A stretch of 64,000 bases of DNA. Origin: Escherichia coli (GTDB lineage: Bacteria; Pseudomonadota; Gammaproteobacteria; Enterobacterales; Enterobacteriaceae). Shown here one piece after another: positions 9,311 to 46,036 of the stretch. Location of the stretch: the NCBI RefSeq assembly GCF_017348835.2, contig NZ_CP071375.1; one strand, written 5' to 3'. Position 1 is the first letter of the stretch, and every line of letters begins with the position of its first letter. The position numbers and the translations under genes are program-made. The notes beneath the pieces were generated by a model, which did not search any database, was not told the origin of the DNA, and saw only the letters and a list, made by a program, of their open reading frames with translations.

Positions 9311-9420
9311 GCCGGATGCGGCGTGAACGCCTTATCCAGCCTACAAATTTGTGCAAATTCAATAAATTGCAGGAAATACGTAGGCCTGATAAGACGCGTC
9401 AAGCGTCGCATCAGGCATCG
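9311..9420. repeat. REP/BIME cluster between phr and dtpD
   Basis: GCCGGATGCGGCGTGAACGCCTTATCCAGCCTAC and GTAGGCCTGATAAGACGCGTCAAGCGTCGCATCAGGC are canonical E. coli REP palindromes in opposite orientation. Confidence 0.9.
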
Positions 9421-26763: not shown

Positions 26764-26884
26764 CGTAGGCCTGATAAGACGCGCAAGCGTCGCATCAGGC
26801 AACCAGTGCCGGATGCGGCGTGAACGCCTTATCCGGCCTACAAGTCATTACCCGTAGGCCTGATAAGCGCAGCGCATCAGGCGT
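26764..26884. repeat. REP/BIME cluster between sdhB and sucA
   Basis: Three REP units (GTAGGCCTGATAAGACGCGCAAGCGTCGCATCAGGC, GCCGGATGCGGCGTGAACGCCTTATCCGGCCTAC, GTAGGCCTGATAAGCGCAGCGCATCAGGC) in alternating orientation. Confidence 0.92.
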
Positions 26885-31116: not shown

Positions 31117-31288
31117 TGTAGACCGGATAAGACATTATCGCCTTCTCCGGCAATTGAAGCCTGATGCGACGCTTAACGCGTCTTATCAGGCCTACGGGAA
31201 GCACCGATGTAGGTCGGATAAGGCGCTCGCGCCGCATCCGACAAGCGATGCCAGATGCGACGCTTACACGTCTTATCAGGCCTACGGG
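31117..31288. repeat. REP/BIME cluster between sucB and sucC
   Basis: At least four REP-like palindromes (e.g. GCCTGATGCGACGCTTAACGCGTCTTATCAGGCCTAC, GTAGGTCGGATAAGGCGCTCGCGCCGCATCCGAC). Confidence 0.9.
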
Positions 31289-33505: not shown

Positions 33506-34072
33506 ATGCCTTAAACGGTTAACCACGGTCGAAATCTGACTGCAGGCTTGACTGCATGACCACAGCCACTGTGGATTGTCGCAACCGACCGCAAGCCACG
33601 AATAAGAACGACGGCGAATTTCGAATCGTTACCTGATGCACTGGCTTCCCAGCGTTTGACCGTAGCGTTAAGTAAATCAACAAAAGCGATGTTCACCGCT
33701 TTTCGTCAAGTCGTGCCATTTGTCAGCCAGGATCGGGTCTTTACCCCGGATATTGCAGCATCGCAAAAATTCTTAGAGGGATATGCTATAAATCAAAAAT
33801 AAAATCTTTGTTGATTGTTTATCATAATATCCACAGATATGATAAATGATATCAATTTAATAATTTTCACTTAATGTGATTCCGGATAATTCGAAAGGCG
33901 CTGTGCTTTTCGGATTATTATTATCTGATTAAGATATTTGTCACGCCAGGCTTACTGGTTTATAAATGTCAATCATGATTCTTATAAATTATTTATTGCT
34001 GCTTTGGTTACCATTACTTCGTAATAAGTAATGTATTTTTGATTGTTTAAACTATTTTTAAGGGACGGCATT

Positions 34073-34978
34073 ATGCGAGGGAAAATACCTAAAACGGAAC
34101 TGCTGGTGACTTTTGAGGTCGTCGCACGTCATGAAAGTTATACCAGAGCGGCAGAGGAGTTAGCGTTAACCCAAAGTGCAGTATTCAGACAAGTAAGTGC
34201 GCTGGAGGAATTTTTACGTACTCCGTTATTTTCACACTCTAAAAAACGTATTTTTCTTAATGATGCAGGGAAGTATTACCTGGGGATAGTAAAAGAAACA
34301 TTAAATAAGCTGGAACGCGATACCAATACCATTATGACCTGGCAGCCTACGGTTCAGGTTATTGAACTTGCCGTTAATCCTACTTTTAGTACCCACTGGT
34401 TAATCCCAAATTTACATGAATTCACAAAGTTACATCCCGATATTATTGTTAATATTCATTCTTTAGCTAATAACGGCGATTTTCTTAATCGGGAGTACGA
34501 TGCTGTCATTATGCGCGAAAATTTTTGCGCGCCCTGGGCGGAAGTAGAATATCTCTTTGATGAGGAGATTTTGCCGGTATGCAGCGGCAGTTTGCTTGCA
34601 ATGTCCGATCAAAAACTGTCAGTGGCAGAACTGCTTACTGAGTTACCGCTTCTGCATCAAAGCACCCGTATTACTGGCTGGGAAGAGTGGTTTGCTTTAT
34701 CTGGCGTTAGCAGTCCGCTGGTCAATAACGGACCACGTTTCGATTTGCTATCAATGCTGATTGCCGCCGTGCGCTCTAATCTCGGCGTGGCGCTGTTACC
34801 ACGTTTCGCTATTCAACATGATTTGGATAGTGGCGATATGGTGATCCCCTGTGATGTGCCTATTCGTACCGGTAATCGTTTTATTATGACGTGGCAGGAA
34901 GAGAAGTCTGACTCACCGCACTTGCAGCAATTTCGTGAATGGTTGCTGGTGAAATCGGTCGTACCGCAGGAGATGTAA
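34073..34978 (+). CDS. LysR-family transcriptional regulator (accessory segment)
   Basis: Track ORF 34043..34978 trimmed to the ATG at 34073 (MRGKIPKTELLVTFEVVARHESYTRAAEELALTQSAVFRQVSALEEFL...), which has an AAGGGA Shine-Dalgarno. It has an N-terminal wHTH of LysR type plus a C-terminal substrate-binding-like domain. Not a K-12 gene at this locus. Confidence 0.85.
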   Translation: MRGKIPKTELLVTFEVVARHESYTRAAEELALTQSAVFRQVSALEEFLRTPLFSHSKKRIFLNDAGKYYLGIVKETLNKLERDTNTIMTWQPTVQVIELAVNPTFSTHWLIPNLHEFTKLHPDIIVNIHSLANNGDFLNREYDAVIMRENFCAPWAEVEYLFDEEILPVCSGSLLAMSDQKLSVAELLTELPLLHQSTRITGWEEWFALSGVSSPLVNNGPRFDLLSMLIAAVRSNLGVALLPRFAIQHDLDSGDMVIPCDVPIRTGNRFIMTWQEEKSDSPHLQQFREWLLVKSVVPQEM

Positions 34979-34981
34979 AAC

Positions 34982-35008
34982 CTGCGCCTGGCGGGATGCC
35001 AGGCGCAG
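34982..35008. terminator. Bidirectional hairpin between the convergent LysR gene and the adenosyltransferase gene
   Basis: Perfect 10-bp stem CTGCGCCTGG / CCAGGCGCAG with a 7-nt loop. It lies 4 nt after the LysR stop and 4 nt before the minus-strand stop. Flanking A/T runs are short. Confidence 0.65.
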
Positions 35009-35011
35009 TTA

Positions 35012-35614
35012 TTACCAGTCGATACCCGGCTGGGCCTGAATGCCGTTATCAAAAGCATGTTTGACGGGGCGGATTTCGCTTACCGTATCCGCCATTTTTA
35101 ATATCTGACTGTGGCAACCGCGTCCGGTGACAATGACACTTTGTTGTGCCGGGCGGTTTTGCAGAGAAGCGATCACTTCTTCGGTATCCAAATAATGGTA
35201 AGCCAGCATATAGGTCAGCTCATCAAGCACCACTAAGTCGTAACGCTTGTCAGCCAGCATCCGTTTGCTTTCCGACCAGACCTCTTTCGCCGCGTCGATA
35301 TCCGCTTGCCGGTTCTGTGTCTCCCAGGTAAAACCAGTTCCCATAATATGAAACTCAACCCCCAGCGGCTGGAGAAGGTTGTATTCGCCGTTGTCCCATT
35401 GCCCCTTGATGTACTGCGCAACCCCCACCGTTTTGCCATGACCCACCGCGCGCGTCACAGTACCAAACGCGGCAGTGGATTTCCCTTTGCCGTTGCCGGT
35501 GAAAACAATCAAGATCCCTTTTTTCTCTATCGCCGCTGCGACGCGCGTATCGACCTGTTCCTTCAATTTCTGTTGGCGCTGCACATGCCGTTCAGTTGAA
35601 ATTCGCGCTTCCAT
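35012..35614 (-). CDS. Corrinoid (cob(I)alamin/cob(I)yrinic acid a,c-diamide) adenosyltransferase, CobA/BtuR/CobO family
   Basis: 200-aa ORF with the P-loop GNGKGKSTAAFG and the family-typical ...VVLDELTY...VIVTGRG... layout. Last gene of the minus-strand cluster, 9 nt after the fumD stop. Confidence 0.88.
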   Translation of the reverse strand: MEARISTERHVQRQQKLKEQVDTRVAAAIEKKGILIVFTGNGKGKSTAAFGTVTRAVGHGKTVGVAQYIKGQWDNGEYNLLQPLGVEFHIMGTGFTWETQNRQADIDAAKEVWSESKRMLADKRYDLVVLDELTYMLAYHYLDTEEVIASLQNRPAQQSVIVTGRGCHSQILKMADTVSEIRPVKHAFDNGIQAQPGIDW

Positions 35615-35623
35615 TCATTTTCC

Positions 35624-37276
35624 TTAATGTCCCGCAGGGCAACTGGCGCAGCGATGTTGCTGCTCAAACTGACTAAAGAAATTATTGCCTTTATCATCTA
35701 CCAGGATGAATGCGGGCAGATTTTCCACTTCCATCATCCACACCGCTTCCATACCCAGCTCCGGATATTCCAGGCAACGCAGACTTTTGACATATTCTTG
35801 CGCCAGTAACGCAGCTGCACCGCCAATACTTCCCAGATTGAAGCCGCCATGTTTGTGACAGGCATCGGTGACCTGCTGGCTGCGGTTACCTTTCGATAAC
35901 ATCACCAGACTGCCGCCAGCCGCCTGGAAGGTATCGATATAACGGTCCATTCGACCGCCCGTGGTTGGACCCAGTGAACCGCAGGCCATGTTCTCCGGTG
36001 TTTTCGCCGGGCCAGCGTAATAGACAATATGATGCTTCAGGTACTCCGGCATCGATTCGCCGCTATCCAGCCGCGCTTTTATTTTGGCGTGGGCGATATC
36101 GCGCGCCACTACGATGGGACCACTTAACGACACGCGGGTGCCTACCGGTAATCTGGCGAGATCCAGCATCACGTCACGCAACGGACGGTTTAGATCCAGT
36201 TGTACATGTTGCGCGTGATTTTCTTCCCGCAATGAGGCTGGAATATATTGCCCCGGATTGTGTTCGAGTTTTTCCAGCCAGATACCGTGTTTGTTAATTT
36301 TTGCTTTGATATTGCGATCGGCAGAACAGGAGAGCGCCATAGCTATCGGGCAAGAGCCACCGTGACGCGGCAGACGAATGACGCGAATATCATGAGCGAA
36401 ATATTTCCCCCCAAATTGTGCACCAATACCAAATTGCTGACTGGCCTCGAGCAACACTTTTTCCAGCTCAATATCACGGAATGCTTGTCCCTGCTCGTTT
36501 CCGCTGGTGGGCAAATTGTCGTAATATTTCGTTGAGGCCAGCTTGGCAACTTTTAAGGTTTGATCGGCTGAAAGCCCTCCGACGGCAAAGGCGATGTGGT
36601 AAGGCGGGCAGGCAGCGGTGCCCAGCGATTTCATTTTTTCGATTAAAAATGCGGTCAGTTTTTCTGGTTGCAATAAGGATTTGGTTTCCTGATAAAGCGC
36701 GGCTTTATTGGCAGAGCCGCCTCCTTTATTAACACAGAGGAAATGGTACTCATCACCAGCGACAGCGCTGATATCAATCTGCGCCGGGAGATTGGTTTGC
36801 GTATTGACTTCGGTATACATATCCAGCGGCGCATTTTGTGAAAAGCGCAGATTATTTTCCTGGAAAGTACTGTAAATGCCTTTACTTAAGGCTTCGGCGT
36901 CGTTACTTCCGGTCCATATCTGTTGCCCTTTACTGGCAACAATAGTTGCGGTGCCGGTATCCTGACAGTTGGGTAATACCCCTTTTGCTGAGACTTCAGC
37001 ATTACGTAATAACTGCAACGCAACGTATTTATCATTACTACTGGCCTGCTGATCGTTAAGAATGCTGGCGACCTGTTGCAAATGAGTGGAACGTAAGAAA
37101 AAAGAGGCTTCATAAAATGCCTGCCGGGCAAGCAGCGTTAATGCTTCAGGAGTGATTTTTATCACTTCTTCGCCGTCTAATTCCGTTACTGTAATATGTT
37201 GATCGCTAATTAATGTATATTCTGTACCGTCTTTATTTTGTAGAAACGGTTCTTGCCAGATAAATGGTTTGGACAT
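35624..37276 (-). CDS. fumD: Class I (Fe-S) fumarate hydratase homolog; mesaconase/fumarase FumD
   Basis: 550-aa ORF collinear with remembered FumA (MSKPF..., [60 protein letters not shown]). Its position beside glutamate mutase and methylaspartase matches the described FumD. Confidence 0.9.
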
Positions 37277-37383
37277 ATTTCACTTTTCACCTTAAACGTT
37301 AGTGTTACTTAATTGCCGTCTAACTTCATGATCCGGCTTATAAAAATGCGTAGTCATTGGCTTCAGATTGCTTAAGAGCCCCC

Positions 37384-38664
37384 TCAGGGCAGAGCAACGT
37401 TCGATTCATTGGTTTTTAATGCTTTACCCCGACAGCCCTCGCCGAAATGTTCGCCTTCCCACCGACTCACCATCGCAGCGCCCATTGCGTTACTCATGAC
37501 GTTTGTCGCGGAACGCCCCATATCAAGGAACGGATCAACGCCCATCAGCAAGATCAGCCCCGCTTCCGGAATATTGAACTGGTTGAGCGTGGCGGCGATA
37601 ACCACCATTGAGGCGCGTGGTACGCCAGCCATTCCTTTCGAGGTCAACATCAGGATCAACAGCATGGTGATTTGCTCACCGATGGATAAATGGATATTGC
37701 AGGCCTGGGCGATGAAAACTGTGGCGAAGGAGCAGTAGGCCATTGATCCAACGAGATTAAATGAGTAGCCAATGGGTAAGACAAAGCTGGCAATTTTGGG
37801 GGAAACGCCAAATTGCTCCAGTTTTTCAAGCGTTCCCGGAAAAGCCGCTTCAGAACTGGATGTGGTAAATGCCAACAGGGCGGGTTCCGAAAGGGCGCGG
37901 GTCAGGCGTCTGATGCAGGGGCCGACATAAACGATGGCCAGACCGATAAGCAGCACCCAAAGTAATAACATGGTGAAATAAAATTCACCCATAAAGATCC
38001 CGGCGCTCACCATAACGGCCAGTCCTCGTTCAGCAATCAATGCTGAAATAGCGGCGAATACGGTCAGGGGAGCGAAGAGCATGACGTAGCCAGTGAGCTT
38101 TAACATGGCATGTGCCAGCGAATCTAAGGCGTGAACGATGGCGCTGCCTTTCTCGCCAATCGCCGTCAGGCTACAGCCGAGGAAAATTGAGAACACCACG
38201 ATTTGCAAAATTTCATTGTGCGCCATGGCATCGACAATGCTGGTGGGGAAAGCATGCGAAATAAATACTTTTAGCGTAAAGGGTTCTGCCGCGACCACTC
38301 CGGTGGTTTCGGCACCGTGTGCAACAAAATTAATTCCTGTACCTGGCATGAAGAAATTTACCGTTATCAAGCCTAAGGCAATTGACAGCAATGAGGCGCA
38401 AATAAATAAAAAGAGTGTTTTAGAAAAAATACGACCAAGGGCTTTAGCATCGCCCATTTTAGCAATACCTACCACCAGGGTAGAAACCACTAACGGAGCG
38501 ATAATCATTTTTATCAGTCGTAAGAAAATCGTCGTGAATATCGATATTTCTTGCGCATAGAGTTTTGCTGTTTCCGGTGAAGCAGTGTTATTGAGCACTA
38601 CGCCGATAATCATTCCAAGTACCAGCGCCAAAAGAATCATCGTGGTTAAACTTATTTTCTTCAT
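37384..38664 (-). CDS. Dicarboxylate/amino acid:cation symporter (DAACS; GltP/DctA-like)
   Basis: Track ORF 37384..38685 trimmed to the ATG at 38664 (MKKISLTTMILLALVLGMIIGVVLNN...), which follows a strong GGAGGA Shine-Dalgarno. Polytopic, with DAACS-like segments (SSSEAAFP, VPRASMVVIA, DMGRSATNV). Substrate unknown. Confidence 0.85.
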   Translation of the reverse strand: MKKISLTTMILLALVLGMIIGVVLNNTASPETAKLYAQEISIFTTIFLRLIKMIIAPLVVSTLVVGIAKMGDAKALGRIFSKTLFLFICASLLSIALGLITVNFFMPGTGINFVAHGAETTGVVAAEPFTLKVFISHAFPTSIVDAMAHNEILQIVVFSIFLGCSLTAIGEKGSAIVHALDSLAHAMLKLTGYVMLFAPLTVFAAISALIAERGLAVMVSAGIFMGEFYFTMLLLWVLLIGLAIVYVGPCIRRLTRALSEPALLAFTTSSSEAAFPGTLEKLEQFGVSPKIASFVLPIGYSFNLVGSMAYCSFATVFIAQACNIHLSIGEQITMLLILMLTSKGMAGVPRASMVVIAATLNQFNIPEAGLILLMGVDPFLDMGRSATNVMSNAMGAAMVSRWEGEHFGEGCRGKALKTNESNVALP

Positions 38665-38709
38665 TTTTTCCTCCATCAGGTGCACGGCGATAAATCAGAA
38701 TCAGGAGAA

Positions 38710-38741
38710 GTAGATGCCTGAATAGAGATTCAGGCATCTAC
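38710..38741. other. Perfect 14-bp stem-loop in the spacer between the DUF4387-like gene and the transporter gene
   Basis: GTAGATGCCTGAAT-agag-ATTCAGGCATCTAC. No clean T run on either side. Possible attenuator, RNA-stability or processing element. Confidence 0.6.
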
Positions 38742-38824
38742 CTGCTATTACAACCTTACAAATAGCTGAAGTGTTGAACTGCAATAAGTGACGGGATGTC
38801 AGTTGGCTAAAAGTGTTCGGATTT

Positions 38825-39142
38825 TTACAAATCGAAACTCATATTTAATAAAGGTGCGTGTTGCTGTGCACCATAGACATCATTGTCACCTACATTCCCG
38901 GAGATAATATCTCGTGGCATGACGATTTTTACTGCGTTAGAAGGATCAAACCAGACAATACGATGAATAAAGTCAGGTCCAACATGATATAAGCGCGCAA
39001 TCAGTTCTGGGGTTAATTGCCCTGATGATTTAACTCGCTCATAGTTTTCTTTGGTTTTAAATAAAATATCTAAAACCAGTTCGTAAGGTCCGGCATTTTT
39101 CGAACGAATGACTTGCGCCAGTGAGACAATTGACTGTTTCAT
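38825..39142 (-). CDS. Small conserved protein of unknown function (resembles DUF4387, the usual partner of AtuA-like proteins)
   Basis: 105-aa ORF MKQSIVSLAQVIRSKNAGPYELVLDILFKTKENYERVKSSG... Its ATG overlaps the stop of the upstream 456-aa ORF (ATGA). Family name is from memory and needs an HMM check. Confidence 0.7.
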   Translation of the reverse strand: MKQSIVSLAQVIRSKNAGPYELVLDILFKTKENYERVKSSGQLTPELIARLYHVGPDFIHRIVWFDPSNAVKIVMPRDIISGNVGDNDVYGAQQHAPLLNMSFDL

Positions 39143-40509
39143 GCCTGAACTCCTTCTGGCGTCACCTGTTCAATATGGAAATCAAAACGCAGAGCGTCGT
39201 TGGCTTCAATCAGGTGATATATGGAAAATTCGTATACCGGCCCGCCCTGGATATCAGAAGGGGAGAACGGGAACGCCAGATTGCCTGCGGTAGCGATGCG
39301 GTTTTCATAGCCGTAGTGCAGCATGGTAGAGCGCACCAGCGAGCAAACGCTATTGGCAATTTCCTGGGTCGGTGCAACTACATCAAGAACAATTCCCAGC
39401 TCATGCCCGGCAGTTTGCATCGGTTCATGGTCTCCCATCACCCCGTTTTTGCCGTACAGGTGGAAATTGATGCGAATGCTGTCATCGTCTAACGACAGGT
39501 TACGCGAAACGCTGGTTTTGACTTCATCGATGATTTTATCGATCCCGGCGATCATGATCGGGTCGCGCGTTCCGGCGATGGTCAGACAGCGGAAGCCCAC
39601 CCGTCGTGCACCTTCCAGTTTCAGGGCATACGGCGTTTCTTCATGCTTAGAACCGCTGACGTACACTTCGCCGTCATTGACCGCTTTAAATGTGCAGCCT
39701 TTCAGGTTCAACACGCCGCCAGGTCCTGGCAGGAAGTAGGGATCGGATTTCTCATACAGTGTGTGTGCAGCTGCTGACGTTTCGGTAAATTTACGCTTCG
39801 GATTAAATGTCTTCAGCGTAAAGCCGTTGTCATCAATGATGCCCATCGCACAGTCAGAGCCTGAGCCGGGCGTTGCAGCGATTGCCGCGCATTCAAGGAT
39901 TTTCCCACAATGCAGCGCCAGACCTTCATCAAAGCCTTGCATGATCGGGAGCGCTGCAAAGCAGGCCGGGTCGTAAGCGCGCCCGCCCAGCACCACTTGC
40001 GCGCCTTCTTTCAGCGCCCGCTGGAAGGGTTCGATGACCATTTGCGCAACGATATACGTACTTTCGTCAATCGCGTCGTGGGTTAACGGCGGGACAAAAT
40101 CCAGCGCCGTGATTTTGCCGTTATCCAGTGCCTGGTGGACGATGGCTTTGTCAACGTCTGCCGGGATCAACGCCATCGAGAACGAGAGGTGCTCTTCCTG
40201 GGCAATCTCATGAATTATTTCTCGGCACCACTCCAGGTGTGGTGCGGCACCAGAACCGCCGGCCGTTCCGATCACCACCGGTATATTATTTTGCACGCCT
40301 GCGGTGATCATATAGCGCAGATCGCGCTTGACTCCTGCGCGATCGGTAAATGGTTTGCCTGCCCCGAGGTAGTGGGGGCCTGGATCGGAAGAGCCTGCAT
40401 CAACGGCGATCAGATCGGGCGATTCTGCCATCGCTTTGCGGAAGCTCTCTTCCGGGAATCCATACCCGAGGATTGCCGTTGGCGATAAGACTTTAAAAGA
40501 ACGAGCCAT
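39139..40509 (-). CDS. Protein of unknown function, AtuA-like (DUF1446 family)
   Basis: 456-aa ORF MARSFKVLSPTAILGYGFPEESFRKAMAESPDLIAVDAGSSDPGPHYLG... It starts 3 nt after the methylaspartase stop. Soluble, with a glycine-rich VVIGTAGGSGAAP segment. Family name is from memory. Confidence 0.7.
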   Translation of the reverse strand: MARSFKVLSPTAILGYGFPEESFRKAMAESPDLIAVDAGSSDPGPHYLGAGKPFTDRAGVKRDLRYMITAGVQNNIPVVIGTAGGSGAAPHLEWCREIIHEIAQEEHLSFSMALIPADVDKAIVHQALDNGKITALDFVPPLTHDAIDESTYIVAQMVIEPFQRALKEGAQVVLGGRAYDPACFAALPIMQGFDEGLALHCGKILECAAIAATPGSGSDCAMGIIDDNGFTLKTFNPKRKFTETSAAAHTLYEKSDPYFLPGPGGVLNLKGCTFKAVNDGEVYVSGSKHEETPYALKLEGARRVGFRCLTIAGTRDPIMIAGIDKIIDEVKTSVSRNLSLDDDSIRINFHLYGKNGVMGDHEPMQTAGHELGIVLDVVAPTQEIANSVCSLVRSTMLHYGYENRIATAGNLAFPFSPSDIQGGPVYEFSIYHLIEANDALRFDFHIEQVTPEGVQA

Positions 40510-40512
40510 TTG

Positions 40513-41754
40513 TTAATCCTTAGCCTGCAACAGCGCGATAGTACGATTCATTTCGTTGAAGACGATATCGAGGCCTTCGTCAAAGCCCATCCCTGGCTTT
40601 ACCAGCATACGCATAGGGCGAGCGGCAAGGGCGACGTGGACACAGGTGCGGGCACTGACATCAGTTTCATTGCAGGTGCCGCCCTGGTACGCTTCCATGC
40701 TGTGGCTGTTGCAGTAAAGAACCGCATCGACGATGTTGTGAATACTGCCCAGATCTGGGGTTTTGATTTGTACCATGTGACAACTGGCGGCATCAGTGAA
40801 ATCAACAATATCCTGGTAGGTGTTACACCATTCATCGGCCACAATTTTCACGCCGGAACCGAGGCGCGTCAGCTCTTTGGTAATCGCGGTCAGCAGGCGA
40901 ATTTGATCGGGCTTGTTACCGGCATCGACCGGTCCTTCAATGTAGAGCGGCAGGCCTTGCGCTTCTTTTTCCAGGCTGGCGATGTATTGCGCACAGCGAA
41001 GCGGATCCATATCGAAGATCAGACCGATAGTGCCGTATACATCGATGTGCAGGGTAGGGTGGTAGCGTGCGCTGGTGCGCTTGCTTAGAATGCGATCCGA
41101 CAACCAGCGGACATATTCGCGCAGTTTTTCACCTTTAAAGCCCAGCTTCTCTTCGACGTTATTAATCAGCGCATGGGGCAGCACGTCGATGCCCTTAAGG
41201 ATCATCTTATCGACGGCGATATATCGATCGTCGCCGCTCTGACCAAATAATGGAATGGATTCCGCCACGCGTGGCAACTGCCATTCATCACAGACCACTT
41301 CAGTTTTCAAACGGCTGGTTGCCAGCGCGGTAGCATCAAGCAGCGCCTGTGATAATCCGTAGCGCACGGCGGTATGCAGCAAGTTGCCGTCAATACGCAA
41401 TTTGTCGAAGAAACGGGCATTCGGCAGGAAAGCATCCACATCGCGGCCTACCAGTAATGGCTTAATATGGTCGTTGAGGAACGGAATAAAGTGCTCTGCG
41501 AGGAACAGTGGATCGCGACCACCTGCCCCGGAATACTGTACGGCAGCACAGTCACCTACAGCGACCGCGCCGTTTTCCAGAATCAACTGTACCGATACGC
41601 ACTCCCCGGCCTGACGAACGGCGTTAAACCCCTGTGTTACCGGCTCCCCGGTATAAAAAAAGCCGTCATGACCCGCTCCGTTTTTTATCGCCTGCTGGTC
41701 ATCGAAATAGAATGAGGAATAGCCAGCGGTGAACAGGGCCTGTTTTATTTTCAT
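40513..41754 (-). CDS. mal: 3-methylaspartate ammonia-lyase (methylaspartase; enolase superfamily)
   Basis: 413-aa ORF collinear with remembered Clostridium tetanomorphum methylaspartase (FYFDDQ.AIK.GAGHDGF.YTG, DCAAVQYSGAGGRDPLFLA, VLPHALINNVEEKLG.KGEKL, ADEWCNT, HMVQIKTPDLG, GGTCNET, KPGMG.DEG). Same length. Confidence 0.93.
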   Translation of the reverse strand: MKIKQALFTAGYSSFYFDDQQAIKNGAGHDGFFYTGEPVTQGFNAVRQAGECVSVQLILENGAVAVGDCAAVQYSGAGGRDPLFLAEHFIPFLNDHIKPLLVGRDVDAFLPNARFFDKLRIDGNLLHTAVRYGLSQALLDATALATSRLKTEVVCDEWQLPRVAESIPLFGQSGDDRYIAVDKMILKGIDVLPHALINNVEEKLGFKGEKLREYVRWLSDRILSKRTSARYHPTLHIDVYGTIGLIFDMDPLRCAQYIASLEKEAQGLPLYIEGPVDAGNKPDQIRLLTAITKELTRLGSGVKIVADEWCNTYQDIVDFTDAASCHMVQIKTPDLGSIHNIVDAVLYCNSHSMEAYQGGTCNETDVSARTCVHVALAARPMRMLVKPGMGFDEGLDIVFNEMNRTIALLQAKD

Positions 41755-43199
41755 TATGGTCTTCCTATTAATTTACTGTGGGATACAGCATTGATGTCAT
41801 CTACAACCATCTGGAATGTCGGTTGGCGTCCTTCACAGCGTGCGCGTTCCGCAACGTAATCGTGGTGGAGGTCGAGAATATCTTTTGGCAATGGAACGGC
41901 TCCGGCTTCCAGTACGCGTATCGCGCCGGTGTTGTCACGGACCGGAAGAATTTTGCCCGCGTTGCAGGCGGCTGGCGCAAACGGCACATCCAGTACGCCC
42001 GCTTCAAATGCCAGCACCGTACCGCGCGCAATATCACCATTACCCAGTTCGAACACTTTATTCAGTACCGCGCGAACCTCGCTCTTAATCAGTTCAATTT
42101 CCAGTTCAACCGCAGGGCACGGCGGGAATTTCTGCTCATTGACCATGTTGAGCATCTGGCGGGAGGCTTTCAGCCCCTGAATGTTGGCAGCGGCAGTCGG
42201 GATACCCCAGGCTTCGTGCGGACTTTTGGTGATGACTTTAGTGGCACCAGACATCCCCGCGACGGCTGCGCCCCAGGAGATAATAGCGAACGCTTTCGAT
42301 TCGTCTTCCGGAAAGCCGCCCATCCACTGGTGAAACACGGTACTTAATTCATAGTCGGTATAGCCATAGCTCTGAAAGTATTCGTGTGCAAGTTCACGCA
42401 GAGACTGGATCGCCGCAACATCCTGCGTCAGGCTGCCGACCTGTCCATAACCAACGGTAATAGATTTCACACCCTGTTCCAGCGCCAGCAAGCCTTCGAT
42501 TATGGCGATAGAGTGCGAGATAAACGGCGGGATCAGCGTACCCGTTAGTGGGCCAAACGGTTCGCGGTTGATGCGGATCCCGTGTTCTTCATACATCCCC
42601 ATTAAACGATCACAGTACTGCCAGTCGCGGATCGATTTTTCCAGCGTTACGCGTTTGGCATACGGAATGTTGTAGGAAATGCCGCCGCCTTCATAACTGG
42701 TAAAGCCGCTGGCCATTGAGATTTCAGCCAGCAGACGCGCATCTGGCGTGCCGTGGCGGATCTGTAGCGGTTTTTGCAGGGTTTCGGTGAGGCGACGGCA
42801 AGCTGCGACACCATGGTTAACTACCGGTAAACCGTTCAGTTTAGAGGTTCCGGCTTCGATGGATTTTTTAATCCCTACAGCCGCTTCTTCGTACCGATTC
42901 AGACGGGTATATGCATCGATGGTGCTTGGCAGCAGATCGCACTCTTCTTGTAGTGTTTTCAGTAGTTCGATGTGTTCGTCCATCAGCGCCACACCTGCGC
43001 GCGGTTGGCTAAGGGTTTTACCTTCCTTGTCTGCTTTCAGCAGCGCAAGAGAGAAGCGTTTATGCTCAGGGATGGTTTGTTGGTATTTAACGCCATCTTC
43101 AAAGTTTTCAACATCCTTGCCGGTTTCCCAGGTTTTCAGTACCTGTTGCCGCTCGGTCATGAATTCGTCATGGGTTAATTTCTTATTTCGAAGTTCCAT
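41754..43199 (-). CDS. Glutamate mutase epsilon (E, catalytic) subunit (GlmE/MutE)
   Basis: 481-aa ORF MELRNKKLTHDEFMTERQQVLKTWETGKDV...SQPRAGVALMDEHIELLKTLQEE, which parallels remembered clostridial GlmE/MutE. Its stop overlaps the methylaspartase ATG by 1 nt. Confidence 0.9.
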   Translation of the reverse strand: MELRNKKLTHDEFMTERQQVLKTWETGKDVENFEDGVKYQQTIPEHKRFSLALLKADKEGKTLSQPRAGVALMDEHIELLKTLQEECDLLPSTIDAYTRLNRYEEAAVGIKKSIEAGTSKLNGLPVVNHGVAACRRLTETLQKPLQIRHGTPDARLLAEISMASGFTSYEGGGISYNIPYAKRVTLEKSIRDWQYCDRLMGMYEEHGIRINREPFGPLTGTLIPPFISHSIAIIEGLLALEQGVKSITVGYGQVGSLTQDVAAIQSLRELAHEYFQSYGYTDYELSTVFHQWMGGFPEDESKAFAIISWGAAVAGMSGATKVITKSPHEAWGIPTAAANIQGLKASRQMLNMVNEQKFPPCPAVELEIELIKSEVRAVLNKVFELGNGDIARGTVLAFEAGVLDVPFAPAACNAGKILPVRDNTGAIRVLEAGAVPLPKDILDLHHDYVAERARCEGRQPTFQMVVDDINAVSHSKLIGRP

Positions 43200-43217
43200 T
43201 GATTGCAGCCTTAATTG

Positions 43218-44606
43218 TTATAGGGTTAAGCATTGAATACTGGTGCGCGCGGCGGCCAGCGGATCGACTCTGGCGACGTTTGCCAGCAGTGGTAATAGCC
43301 CCGGGGAATCGCGGTAATATTCAAATTCGGTCGGTAAGAGAATGCGTTTACCGTCGTCGTTTAACTCGCGGTATTTCAACCAGTGATGCATATCGAACTG
43401 ACTGGCACGCGAGAGCCATCCGCCGGATCCGACGACTTTACGCACGGTTGTCAGGTCACGTCCCATCTGCAAATCGACATTGCCGACGCAGGTGCAGACC
43501 TCTTTTTTGGTGCCCGCATGTCTTTCGGTGGCATAACCCACACACAGTCCGGCCAGGACGGTATCGAAATATTTCTCTTCTGCATTTGCGGGTAAGTAGT
43601 CGGGATGAGCGACTAAATGACGGAGATAATGATAAAAAGCGTCCAGCTGTGCGGGTTGCTGAGCAAAATTCACATTGACTAACTCTTTCGCACTTTCACC
43701 AACCACCATTGCCGAGACGCGCATTCCCAGATCGCCTTCCACCGTCCGTTTCACGAAGGGTTCCGGTACGCCGTGTAAAACGGTGTCGGGCGAGAGCGTG
43801 TTGGCACAGGCGGAATAGACATCGGTGGTTGCGCCACCCATGTCGATCAGCATGAACTCTTTCCAGCTGTGATCGACGCTACTGATTGCCTTAACCAGTT
43901 CAAAGACTGTCCAAGGTGTCGGCATTGGTTCTTCGCCTGTTTTATCAACAATGACATCCAGCCCTTTCCCTTTAACGATGCGTTTAAGGAATATGTCGCA
44001 AATAGCCTGGCGTGCGGCTAAAGGGTTCGGATGGTCAAGATCGGGCAGAACATTGTCGACGATGGTCAGGTCTTTATGCCCGAGGATCTCCTGCACCTCG
44101 TCCTGAATATCCCGGTTTCCGGCATAAATAATGGCGCAGTCGAGTTTGGATTCTGCCAGCACACGGGCGTTATTCAGTCCGTAGCTTTCTTCTCCGCCGT
44201 CGGTGCCGCCGGTGAACAAGAGAATATCGGGCTGCGTTTCTTCCAGTGCCTGGATATCACGGCGGTTCAGCTTGTAGGCGTAATATTGCGCAATTTTAGC
44301 ACCCGCAGAGTGAGCGGTTACTTTCGCTGTTTCCAGGGTGATAGAAGGCACCAATCCCATTGCGGCAACCGCCAGCCCACCTTTGGCAGAGGAGGAATAC
44401 TTCAATGCAACCTCACCGCTGTTTAACAGGGGGAGGGCATTATCTACGTTTAACACCTGGTTCAGGCTGGAGAAAAACCCCTTCGCCAGATGATGGGTGG
44501 TGGTTGGGGTCAGTACGTGGTTAACCAACGTTAACGCGTCCCCCTCCCGGGTGAAGAGGGCTGCTTTGGTCCACGTCGATCCAATATCGACAGAGACGAT
44601 TTGCAT
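43218..44606 (-). CDS. Glutamate mutase L component (GlmL/MutL; ASKHA-type putative reactivase/chaperone)
   Basis: 462-aa [21 protein letters not shown]... (actin-like ATPase phosphate-1 motif DIGSTxTK). It lies between the S and E subunit genes as in the Clostridium mutS-mutL-mutE arrangement. Its ATG overlaps the S-subunit stop (TGATG). Confidence 0.85.
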   Translation of the reverse strand: MQIVSVDIGSTWTKAALFTREGDALTLVNHVLTPTTTHHLAKGFFSSLNQVLNVDNALPLLNSGEVALKYSSSAKGGLAVAAMGLVPSITLETAKVTAHSAGAKIAQYYAYKLNRRDIQALEETQPDILLFTGGTDGGEESYGLNNARVLAESKLDCAIIYAGNRDIQDEVQEILGHKDLTIVDNVLPDLDHPNPLAARQAICDIFLKRIVKGKGLDVIVDKTGEEPMPTPWTVFELVKAISSVDHSWKEFMLIDMGGATTDVYSACANTLSPDTVLHGVPEPFVKRTVEGDLGMRVSAMVVGESAKELVNVNFAQQPAQLDAFYHYLRHLVAHPDYLPANAEEKYFDTVLAGLCVGYATERHAGTKKEVCTCVGNVDLQMGRDLTTVRKVVGSGGWLSRASQFDMHHWLKYRELNDDGKRILLPTEFEYYRDSPGLLPLLANVARVDPLAAARTSIQCLTL

Positions 44607-45055
44607 CAGATTGCCTCTTCAAGAATGCGAGTATCAACGTCATGACGTTGGTTGATATCGTGGGCCATCAGCTGACAAACCTCTTCTAAGTCATGACTTG
44701 GGGCAAAGACGCGATCAAATCCCATCTCTTTGAACTTGTTTTCCACGTCAGCGAAGTCATGTTTTCCTACCACCAGGTTACCGCCCACATAGAGCAGGAT
44801 GTCCCCCAGTCCACGCTCGATGCAGCGTTCGCGCATGCCCAGACAGTCGATATCGCCATGCCCATAGATAGAGGAGACGACAATCGCGTCAGCGCCAGTT
44901 TCAATGGCAGCATCAATATATTCGTCCTGGCTGACCATTACGCCCAGATTAATGACTCTGAAGTCGTGGTTGCTAAAAACGCGGTCCAGAACTTTATTGC
45001 CTACTGCATGGCAGTCCGCGCCAATAACGCCAATCACAAGTGTTGCTTTCTTCAT
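44606..45055 (-). CDS. Glutamate mutase sigma (S, cobalamin-binding) subunit (GlmS/MutS of the methylaspartate pathway)
   Basis: Track ORF 44606..45118 trimmed to the ATG at 45055 ([24 protein letters not shown]...), with an AAGGA Shine-Dalgarno 7 nt upstream, giving 149 aa. It has the DxHxxG base-off/His-on B12 motif (DCHAVGNK) and parallels clostridial MutS. Confidence 0.9.
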
Positions 45056-45504
45056 GGGTAATCCTTTGTAAGACAGAGAGTAAAATAAGTTACACACGTC
45101 GTATTTATGGCCGTTCATAACGGCACAGGTTTAATATCACAGGAGTGTCTTTATCTGACCGTAATGTTGCAATTGATCTATTTTCAAAATGTCTTTCGGG
45201 AAATGATTGTTTAAAGTGTGTTTTTAAATTTCCATGTTAATTCAGTGTGTTATGTCAACTAATGTCATGAATGTTAAATTTTTAAAATTAACTTGATTTG
45301 GTGTATTGAGATATTTGTGATCTACTTCTAATTTGCATTTTAGTGATATGGGTTTAGCCATAAGTAAATGCATTTCATAAAATTTAAGTCGAATTTCACT
45401 ACCATTCATTTCTGCTTAATGTAAAAGTAATGTTGAAAATAACAAATGGTTAATGATTAATGCGAATTATGACCTTCGTTAGCTCTTTTGATTTGCGTAA
45501 AAAA

Positions 45505-45528
45505 GAGAGATACATAGAGAGATACATG
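45505..45528. repeat. Tandem 12-bp direct repeat in the AT-rich spacer
   Basis: GAGAGATACATA GAGAGATACATG, two adjacent copies with 11 of 12 identical. Confidence 0.8.
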
Positions 45529-45613
45529 AAGGTGCTACCAGTATGAGTAATGTTATTTAAAGGTTTTATTACGTCTGGCAATAACGCAGGTCATTTTTCG
45601 CGACTGGGTGGGT

Positions 45614-46036
45614 TTAATCAGTATAATCCTCATACAATAGTTCAGGATTAACTGAACCGTTAACGGAGTTTTGATGTTGAAATTTAGAAATGGCGGAGTC
45701 AATCAATGAAGACAGTATTGAAAAAATAACTGTGTCAGAACTAATTTCAATTAATCCTTCTCGTTGCTGACCAAAAAAGATATTTATCTTGATTTCATTT
45801 GTACTACGGCAATCAATATGCAGTAATTTTTGATCGCTGAGATTTTCTGTTTCATAAATGTTTTTGGCGATAGTCGGATGTATTGATGCCAGACATCTGC
45901 TCAGATAAGCCAGATCCTTTAGGGAACACCCCGCTGAGTAGAGGATGTCAGAGAATTTTTGTGTGTCAACTGTTGGCTCTGAAGCGTATGTTGCATTGAC
46001 TGGAAGAGTATTGAAAGAGATCTGAGATGGTATCAT
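45614..46036 (-). CDS. Hypothetical acidic protein, 140 aa, AT-rich orphan
   Basis: ORF MIPSQISFNTLPVNATYASEPTVDTQKFSD...; no signal peptide or TM segment. About 17 D/E versus 9 K/R by my count. It lies 81 nt downstream of the 314-aa ORF on the same strand. The Shine-Dalgarno is weak and I recognise no family. Confidence 0.55.
   Translation of the reverse strand: MIPSQISFNTLPVNATYASEPTVDTQKFSDILYSAGCSLKDLAYLSRCLASIHPTIAKNIYETENLSDQKLLHIDCRSTNEIKINIFFGQQREGLIEISSDTVIFSILSSLIDSAISKFQHQNSVNGSVNPELLYEDYTD

Follow-up and report, generated by a model that had tools for sequence, protein, structure and literature searches.

The gene cluster for the methylaspartate route of glutamate breakdown in E. 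coli raises the question of which enzyme cleaves citramalate. Kronen & Berg (2015) found E. coli to be without citramalate lyase activity and regarded what becomes of citramalate as unclear; in strains that carry the cluster, neither citrate lyase nor isocitrate lyase nor methylisocitrate lyase provided a detectable level of this activity, and the cleavage step was therefore unassigned at that time (PMC4682846). A DUF1446 gene adjoining mal had already been pointed out in the same paper. We analyzed this gene and its downstream partner (ORF456 and ORF105) in a 64,000-nt stretch of E. coli DNA (contig NZ_CP071375.1; the window), following an earlier note, made from the sequence alone, that had put the pair forward as a candidate for the enzyme still lacking in the methylaspartate route of E. 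coli.

Organization of the gene cluster

Six minus-strand genes in the order glmS-glmL-glmE-mal-ORF456-ORF105 are separated by intergenic gaps of at most 18 nt. The first, glmS (44606–45055, with the start at 45055 taken from RefSeq), encodes the B12-binding S subunit of glutamate mutase (NF002612, 252.6 bits; RefSeq annotation of the identical strain PE164) and overlaps by 1 nt (TGATG) with glmL (43218–44606), which encodes the glutamate mutase accessory protein, or reactivase (TIGR01319, 890 bits; NF040745, 509 bits). A gap of 18 nt leads to glmE (41754–43199), the gene for the E subunit of glutamate (methylaspartate) mutase (TIGR01503, 866 bits), and a second 1-nt overlap (TAATG) joins it to mal (40513–41754), whose product is assigned as methylaspartate ammonia-lyase by the equivalog model TIGR01502 (544.9 bits) and by Pfam MAAL_N and MAAL_C. 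ORF456 (39139–40509; 456 aa) starts 3 nt past the mal stop, and its own stop is overlapped by the start codon of ORF105 (38825–39142; 105 aa) in an ATGA at 39139–39142, which probably couples the translation of the two proteins. Each of the two ORFs has a good Shine-Dalgarno sequence ahead of it (AAGGA for ORF456, GAAGGAG for ORF105).

The spacer between ORF105 and the ATG of the next gene measures 160 nt (38665–38824) and folds with an energy of -41.3 kcal/mol (z = -2.9 relative to shuffled sequences). It contains a minus-strand hairpin (38709–38742) with a stem of 14 perfect base pairs and a single G-U pair, closed by a CUCU loop and followed by a tail of only moderate U-richness. A consensus terminator scan of the spacer returned only a 5-bp terminator-like site (38744–38731) within or overlapping the upstream arm of the hairpin; because the U-tail is weak, the scan does not support a classical intrinsic terminator, and the hairpin is probably a partial terminator or an mRNA-stabilizing element. 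The packing described in the earlier note, from the short gaps and the ATGA overlap to the 160-nt spacer with its hairpin, is thus confirmed by the coordinates.

Beyond the spacer, the minus strand continues with a GltP/DctA-like dicarboxylate/amino acid:cation symporter gene (37384–38664; Pfam SDF, 343 bits; RefSeq CDS), whose product does not reach the cutoff of either the GltP or the DctA NCBIfam model and is probably a glutamate uptake protein. It is followed by fumD (35624–37276; NF011921, 1271 bits), which encodes a class I fumarase/mesaconase; FumD of E. coli O157:H7 is a mesaconase with a kcat/Km of 2e6 M-1 s-1 (PMC4682846). The last minus-strand gene, cobA/cobO (35012–35614; TIGR00708, 246.6 bits), encodes a corrinoid adenosyltransferase for the supply of AdoCbl to glutamate mutase, and a strong terminator of 11 bp with nine GC pairs lies 3′ of it (34982–35008). 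A plus-strand gene for a LysR-family protein (34043–34978; Pfam HTH_1 and LysR_substrate; called by RefSeq as a shorter CDS of 906 nt) converges on the cobA end of the cluster. The LysR gene occupies the same position in 13 related loci, and an LTTR is drawn for the cluster in Fig. 5 of PMC4682846; its product is a candidate regulator of the cluster. An Rfam scan detected no RNA family in the cluster. The window is 100% identical to strain PE164, in which cydAB and sucABCD flank the cluster.

Family assignment of ORF456 and ORF105

Pfam membership was judged by gathering threshold, and both ORFs lie above it. ORF456 scored 65.3 bits against AtuA (PF07287; cutoff 22.8; E 6e-18) and ORF105 scored 132.8 bits against DUF4387 (PF14330; cutoff 27; E 8e-39), in agreement with the families named in the earlier note, whereas no NCBIfam model matched either ORF. 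The AtuA match is weak, at 65 bits on a 437-position model, and ORF456 is a divergent AtuA/DUF1446 protein. AtuA-DUF4387 fusion proteins also exist, for example in Tremella, with 40% identity to the ORF456 product over 442 aa. Such fusions are about 600 aa long, the Thauera AtuA having 615 aa, and one fungal member also includes a family III CoA-transferase domain. The glycine-rich stretch VVIGTAGGSGAAP that had caught the eye in the sequence corresponds to residues 78–90 of the ORF456 product, and it does contain residues that are invariant in 26 diverse homologues (G81, G84, G85, G87 and A88; H91 is likewise invariant).

Some NCBI/UniRef homologues of ORF456 (hits P0002, P0059 and P0072) are labeled methylaspartate ammonia-lyase. 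We rejected this name for ORF456, which has an AtuA domain only and is without the MAAL_N and MAAL_C domains of the enolase superfamily; the true Mal is encoded by the upstream gene. Kronen & Berg had pointed out the mislabeling of a DUF1446 protein in this way (PMC4682846). Components of the classical citramalate lyase, namely CitE (HpcH/HpaI aldolase-like), CitF and CitD, had no Pfam or NCBIfam match in either ORF or in the ten cluster genes (34043–45118), and the annotation of strain PE164 lists no cit gene in the ~20 kb around the cluster.

Identification as citramalate lyase CmlAB

Both proteins have close full-length counterparts in the PDB. The ORF456 product is identical to chain A of entry 9ERQ at 421 of 456 positions (92.3%), and it shares with that chain all 158 of the 158 positions that are invariant in the 26-homologue set; the ORF105 product is identical to chain B at 88 of 104 positions (84.6%; E 1e-56). 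Chains A and B of 9ERQ and 9EVF, released in October 2025, were named by the depositors 'Citramalate lyase, subunit A (cmlA)' and 'subunit B (cmlB)', and the entries are titled 'Citramalate lyase - AMPPNP - citramalate complex' and 'Citramalate lyase - ADP - pyruvate complex'. ORF456 and ORF105 are thus very probably cmlA and cmlB, predicted to encode the two subunits, large and small, of the heteromeric citramalate lyase that works independently of CoA and ACP and was first characterized from Raoultella planticola. By transfer from this orthologue, CmlAB of the window would convert (S)-citramalate to pyruvate and acetate and bind an adenine nucleotide. We consider the names citramalate lyase CmlA and CmlB transferable to these genes with confidence.

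Our literature search for the original description of CmlAB yielded two papers only, a 2026 preprint in which the enzyme is applied and the 2015 article on FumD. In the preprint, cmlAB and FumA suffice in E. coli for converting mesaconate into pyruvate and an acetyl-CoA precursor, and mesaconate-dependent growth and 13C labeling required CmlAB; the enzyme serves there as a tool, and its reaction is given as a plain cleavage to acetate, with ATP unmentioned. Together with the gap left in 2015, the structures bear out the proposal that the pair is the enzyme that had been lacking in the methylaspartate route of E. coli, and they contain both proteins as chains of one two-subunit enzyme, as had been predicted. 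The substrates proposed at that stage rightly included citramalate, but they were hedged over several compounds and citramalate was not singled out. The description of the pair as uncharacterized and as a new activity is out of date: the identity of CmlAB is already known, and it is not a new enzyme. The step that Kronen & Berg had left open in the methylaspartate pathway of enterobacteria is filled by CmlAB.

We also considered that the pair acts on a different C5 step, such as epimerization of methylaspartate or ATP/CoA-dependent activation of mesaconate or citramalate, with citramalate cleaved elsewhere. The nucleotide bound in the solved orthologue would be unusual for a simple lyase and speaks for such a role, as does the CoA-transferase domain on the fungal fusion. 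This reading is nevertheless very unlikely, given that the depositors named the orthologue a citramalate lyase and trapped complexes with substrate (citramalate) and product (pyruvate), that cmlAB and FumA were enough in vivo, that E. coli has no other citramalate-cleaving activity (PMC4682846), and that the cluster is without a gene for a CoA ligase or CoA-transferase. Instead of the activation or epimerization step entertained in the earlier note, CmlAB takes over step four of the classical pathway.

Conservation of the locus across genomes

We surveyed synteny in 80 species-level loci across phyla. The cmlB gene lies directly 3′ of cmlA in 78 of them, which is every locus long enough to show it, and glmE and a class I fumarase gene are found near cmlAB in 60 and 34 loci, respectively. 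Linkage to mal and glm in other taxa, which had been put forward as a check, is conserved, with mal directly 5′ of cmlA in 64/80. Among the mal-less loci, one (L081) has a split fumarase directly 5′ of cmlAB, and another (L066) has a TRAP (DctM) transporter gene 5′ of cmlAB and a fumarase-like tblastn match ~3 kb 3′. The locus closest to the PDB protein, from Klebsiella sp. (98%), has the order glmSLE-mal-cmlAB-gltP-fumD-cobA, as in the window. Acetate kinase and phosphotransacetylase, whose enrichment was looked for as a sign of an acetyl-phosphate product, are not among the 25 commonest cmlAB neighbor families; as both are encoded by housekeeping genes, this says nothing about the product. 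Directly 3′ of cmlB, 42 of the 80 loci, none of them enterobacterial or from Aeromonas, carry a gene for a 315-aa Walker-A protein that is absent from the window and for which no Pfam, NCBIfam or PDB relative scored above threshold. The complete cluster is present in 1125 of 5426 complete E. coli genomes (about one fifth), including O157:H7.

RefSeq names the cmlA product 'acyclic terpene utilization AtuA family protein', and this name and the above-cutoff Pfam match would fit a true AtuA-type enzyme of acyclic terpene (citronellol/geraniol) catabolism that adjoins mal by coincidence. We regard this as almost certainly wrong: the AtuA match is the weak one described above, the mal/glm linkage is kept across phyla, the orthologue binds citramalate and pyruvate, and the cluster is without atu/liu genes (geranyl-CoA carboxylase AtuC/F, hydratase, acyl-CoA dehydrogenase, AtuD, AtuE).

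A Val158 allele of CmlA

CmlA of the window has valine at residue 158, where 117 of 117 other homologues and 9ERQ chain A have glycine. The position falls outside the 26-sequence invariant set, in which the sole non-Gly residue there is that of the window itself. The nearest E. coli allele differs from CmlA of the window at this residue only, and residue 158 is placed by prediction at the C-terminal end of a β-strand in the conserved N-terminal domain. These observations would suit an impaired enzyme in this strain. Silence of the genes could also be envisaged, with a silenced AT-rich promoter region: the region 5′ of glmS (558 nt) has a GC content of 32%, and the cluster was unexpressed under all laboratory conditions tried (PMC4682846). 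That CmlAB is impaired or silent here and makes no metabolic contribution seems unlikely to us, as all ten cluster genes are intact and full length relative to their family models, one Gly-to-Val change need not abolish activity, and the identical allele occurs in two independent pig isolates.

Proposed pathway and mechanism

With CmlAB as citramalate lyase and FumD in the same cluster, the cluster would therefore encode every step that leads from glutamate to its products ammonia, pyruvate and acetate. In this self-contained 10-kb module, glutamate would enter through the GltP-like symporter and pass through the GlmS/GlmE mutase, served by the GlmL reactivase and by CobA for cofactor supply, and through Mal; FumD would then make (S)-citramalate, and CmlAB would cleave it to give pyruvate and a C2 unit that ends up as acetate.

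Judging only from the titles of the PDB entries, we lean slightly toward a chemical part for ATP in the CmlAB reaction. ATP would phosphorylate the C4 carboxylate of citramalate, C-C cleavage would yield pyruvate and a stabilized acetyl-phosphate enolate, and either acetyl phosphate would be released or acetate would be formed with ATP regenerated. The invariant CmlA loop G81-T-A-G-G-S-G-A-A-P-H91 would bind phosphate, and the highly conserved CmlB loops RSKNAGPYE and GDxDVYGAQQHAPLL would help to build the active site. A tentative and rather doubtful extension covers split CmlAB, the ~600-aa fused bacterial and fungal proteins and AtuA of the Atu pathway: the AtuA + DUF4387 superfamily may consist of lyases that depend on a nucleotide and split acetate or acetyl phosphate off 3-hydroxy-3-substituted carboxylates via an acyl-phosphate, with the 315-aa Walker-A protein as a third component lost by enterobacteria. 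If true, the 'acetate enolate' problem would be solved in this way without a thioester.

RefSeq, Pfam and NCBIfam still call these proteins 'AtuA family' and 'DUF4387' with no function given, and the assignment is of value for annotation. With CmlAB, the large AtuA family gains its first point of entry for structural work, and a CoA-independent citramalate lyase is of biotechnological interest.

Comparison with known systems

CmlAB is a non-homologous replacement of the clostridial CitDEF-type citramalate lyase complex. The classical citramalate/citrate lyase (CitD ACP, CitE and CitF with CitC/X/G; Clostridium tetanomorphum and its relatives) catalyzes the same net reaction, (S)-citramalate to pyruvate and acetate, at the same place in the pathway, the fourth step after mesaconase. 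In contrast, CmlA and CmlB match only AtuA and DUF4387 and have no sequence or fold kinship with it, and the cluster is without ACP, prosthetic-group or acetyl-thioester machinery; the solved CmlAB orthologue binds an adenine nucleotide instead.

AtuA of the Atu pathway belongs to the same Pfam family, its AtuA domain is linked to a DUF4387 module, as in split and fused proteins alike, and the chemistry proposed for it is similar (R2C(OH)-CH2-COO- to a ketone and acetate). The statement in the earlier note that AtuA-type proteins have no assigned biochemical function was therefore inaccurate, since an acetate-releasing cleavage had already been proposed. CmlA differs as a divergent branch (65 bits), with split rather than fused subunits, a free C5 dicarboxylate rather than a CoA ester as substrate, and a context of glutamate fermentation rather than atu/liu genes.

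ATP-citrate lyase, which uses a nucleotide in the C-C cleavage of a 2-hydroxy-2-substituted succinate, offers an analogy for the proposed CmlAB mechanism only. Its citryl-phosphate/citryl-CoA route is a precedent for activation of a carboxylate as an acyl phosphate before cleavage. Homology between the two was not detected, with no ATP-grasp, succinyl-CoA-synthetase or citrate-synthase-like domains in CmlAB, and ATP-citrate lyase, unlike CmlAB, requires CoA and produces acetyl-CoA.

The closest system is CmlAB of R. planticola (9ERQ and 9EVF; Berg laboratory), from which the window proteins differ in host and by 35 substitutions in CmlA, including the window-only G158V, and 16 in CmlB. In keeping with a CmlAB of this type, the window has a full-length CmlA homologue, a separate CmlB encoded directly downstream and linked genes for citramalate-making enzymes (mal, glmSE and fumD).

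Identification of the gene pair as citramalate lyase

Against Pfam, the 456-residue open reading frame (39139-40509, minus strand) gave a weak but significant match to AtuA/DUF1446 (65.3 bits) and the 105-residue frame (38825-39142, minus strand) matched DUF4387 at 132.8 bits; NCBIfam provided a model for neither. A sequence search of the PDB aligned the longer protein end-to-end with chain A of entries 9ERQ and 9EVF from Raoultella planticola (E 6e-292; 421 of 456 residues, or 92.3%, identical) and the shorter one with chain B of the same entries (E 1e-56; 88/104, 84.6%). The depositors named these molecules "Citramalate lyase, subunit A (cmlA)" and "Citramalate lyase, subunit B (cmlB)". The two entries, titled "Citramalate lyase - AMPPNP - citramalate complex" and "Citramalate lyase - ADP - pyruvate complex", were released on 2025-10-22 and 2025-10-08, respectively. 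Judged by sequence, the pair is citramalate lyase CmlA/CmlB, and the PDB match settles the question.

That CmlAB is a heteromer of 456- and 105-residue subunits binding citramalate and pyruvate, and that it performs the fourth step of the methylaspartate pathway independently of CoA, ACP or CitDEF machinery, is either shown or directly transferable from the orthologue. By Pfam, NCBIfam and the annotation of strain PE164, the cluster encodes no CoA, ACP or CitDEF components, and none resembles CmlA or CmlB. The entries 9ERQ and 9EVF bear out the core of the earlier note, which had proposed a two-subunit enzyme for the step missing from the methylaspartate route of E. coli. Both the complexes with substrate and product and the in vivo data contradict the view that the pair carries out another C5 step, for example epimerisation or activation. 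In a preprint using the enzyme, for which cmlAB was cloned with one ribosome-binding site per subunit, mesaconate-dependent growth of E. coli and 13C flow into acetyl-CoA needed CmlAB together with FumA. Earlier work had identified and named the enzyme and solved it for a 92%-identical orthologue, which means that the assignment is not a discovery; the gene pair and the pathway gap were on record in 2015.

Organization of the cluster

The cmlA gene starts 3 nt past the methylaspartase stop and cmlB starts within the cmlA stop (ATGA at 39139-39142), with good Shine-Dalgarno sequences ahead of both. Farther upstream, glmS/glmL and glmE/mal each overlap by 1 nt, and 18 nt separate glmL from glmE. 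Inspection of the minus-strand frames and their junctions confirmed the positions and tight packing described previously, and the ATGA overlap would fit translational coupling of the two subunits.

Family models named the surrounding genes, all full length and on the minus strand, as glmS and glmE (glutamate mutase), glmL (mutase reactivase), mal (methylaspartate ammonia-lyase; 40513-41754), a gltP/dctA-like symporter gene, fumD (class I fumarase) and cobA (corrinoid adenosyltransferase). The FumD enzyme from E. coli O157:H7 works efficiently as a mesaconase (Kronen & Berg, PMC4682846). With CmlAB as step four, the 10-kb cluster encodes the whole route by which glutamate becomes pyruvate, acetate and ammonia: uptake, the supply of cofactor and each of the four catalytic steps. 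A strong terminator lies 3' of cobA, and just past it, on the other strand and convergent with cobA, is a gene for a LysR-family regulator.

Both subunits are 100% identical to the copies in E. coli strain PE164, in which the cluster lies between cydAB and sucABCD. The island appears to take the place of mngR-mngA-mngB, which in E. coli K-12 sits between sucD and cydA. Two hypothetical protein genes, of 314 and 140 residues, lie between the glm cluster and cydA; they take up 45614-46036 and the gene beside it, and correspond to RefSeq LZG51_RS16725/16730 in L001.

The 160-nt spacer 3' of cmlB, before the gltP-like gene, folds better than its shuffles (z = -2.9) and contains a hairpin (38709-38742) of 14 perfect base pairs and one G-U pair, with a 4-nt loop and a tail of only moderate U-richness. 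A consensus terminator scan did not report the full stem; its one terminator-like site here, of 5 bp (38744-38731), falls inside or overlaps the upstream arm. More probably, the hairpin acts as a partial terminator or as an element for mRNA stabilisation or processing, setting the ratio of the six upstream to the three downstream genes.

Conservation of the pair and its neighbors

A survey of one genome per species yielded 80 loci, drawn from many phyla and sharing 55-92% identity with CmlA; in 78 of them cmlB lay directly 3' of cmlA, and the other two end at cmlA. Directly upstream was mal in 64 loci; 60 loci had glmE and 34 a class I fumarase, and the Klebsiella sp. locus closest to the PDB protein (98%) has the gene order of the window. 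Among the loci lacking mal, cmlAB is immediately preceded in L081 by a split MesAB-type fumarase, while in L066 a TRAP (DctM) transporter gene precedes it and a fumarase-like match lies some 3 kb beyond it; such neighbors are expected for an enzyme consuming mesaconate-derived citramalate.

A CmlB search covering 1.8 billion representative proteins identified AtuA-DUF4387 fusions of about 600-735 residues, several of them fungal, including one from Tremella with 40% identity to CmlA over 442 residues and DUF4387 at its C-terminus. As "Rosetta stone" proteins, such fusions independently support a functional unit. Among the fusions P0339, P0381, P0353, P0340 and P0372, the fungal ones include Tremella, Lojkania and Xylariaceae; P0372 (1096 residues) also has a family III CoA-transferase domain, and P0340 repeats the C-terminal ferredoxin-like segment of CmlA.

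A further protein, about 315 residues long, highly conserved (44-74% identity) and bearing the Walker A motif GAEGSGKST, is encoded in 42 of the 80 loci, none enterobacterial or from Aeromonas, directly downstream of cmlB in most and upstream of glmS in a few (for example, L020:11694-12647, L024:11675-12595 and L054:4048-5001). It is not present in the window and had no above-threshold relative in Pfam, NCBIfam or the PDB; it may be a third component of citramalate lyase or an NTPase accessory to it.

Proposed mechanism

The substrate complex used a non-hydrolysable ATP analogue and the product complex contained ADP, which suggests ATP turnover in catalysis. In a scheme drawn from the PDB titles, to which we give a little better than an even chance, ATP would phosphorylate the C4 carboxylate of citramalate, C-C cleavage would yield a stabilised acetyl-phosphate enolate instead of an acetate dianion, and either acetyl phosphate would be released or the phosphate would pass back to ADP with release of acetate. 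The alternative is that the nucleotide is structural or allosteric in CmlAB. For the ATP-dependent scheme, a candidate phosphate-binding site is the invariant glycine-rich loop G81-H91 of CmlA, a stretch singled out in the earlier note. All 158 positions invariant among 26 diverse homologues are identical in the window CmlA and 9ERQ_A. The active site probably involves two very conserved CmlB segments, RSKNAGPYE (13-21) and GDxDVYGAQQHAPLL (85-99); model confidence for the latter was low when CmlB was modelled in isolation.

Val158 and expression of the window copy

The possibility that this particular CmlA copy is impaired or silent is worth keeping. Codon 158 (40036-40038, minus strand) encodes Val, where 9ERQ_A and 117/117 other homologue representatives (at least 61% identical) have Gly, and residue 158 is all that separates the window protein from the E. 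coli allele nearest to it (TUM13936, WP_000124254.1). This residue ends a predicted β-strand in the conserved N-terminal domain, and the Val158 allele, which may be a natural hypomorph, is common to the pig isolates PE164 and F2_81. Upstream of glmS, a 558-nt intergenic region (45056-45613) of 32% GC, compared with 51% for both cluster and window, looks like a long regulatory or silenced region. It may explain the lack of observed laboratory expression of the cluster, which was absent under every condition tried in 2015 (Kronen & Berg, PMC4682846).

Annotation and relation to AtuA

The pair is carried by 1125 of 5426 complete E. coli genomes, in all of which RefSeq labels it "AtuA family" and "DUF4387", and the remaining use of the finding is annotation transfer. 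E. coli ST2747 keeps only the last 127 nt of cmlB (NZ_CP007392.1 1462700-1462826, match H22; labelled "DUF4387 family protein"), seemingly left over from a deletion of the cluster. The CmlA homologues P0002, P0059 and P0072, and P0381 in its UniRef name, are called "3-methylaspartate ammonia-lyase" because of gene adjacency, a misnaming already remarked on by Kronen & Berg (PMC4682846). Elsewhere in the window, matches at Rfam gathering scores are ordinary E. coli features unrelated to cmlAB: two naRNA4 (REP-derived) elements (26768-26838, minus; 31212-31282, plus), the ES036 sRNA (9345-9387, plus), the cpoB/ybgF thermometer (55899-56037, plus), and six tRNA matches with an RtT element (56964-57683, plus).

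The earlier note was not quite right in denying AtuA proteins an assigned function, as a proposal for AtuA is already on record. A terpene-catabolic role for the pair is contradicted by the genomic context, and the cluster contains no atu genes; CmlA represents a divergent branch of the family and not an Atu-pathway enzyme. The reaction proposed for AtuA and citramalate cleavage are of one chemical type, each converting R2C(OH)-CH2-COO- to a ketone and acetate, and the CmlAB assignment makes the old AtuA proposal more credible.
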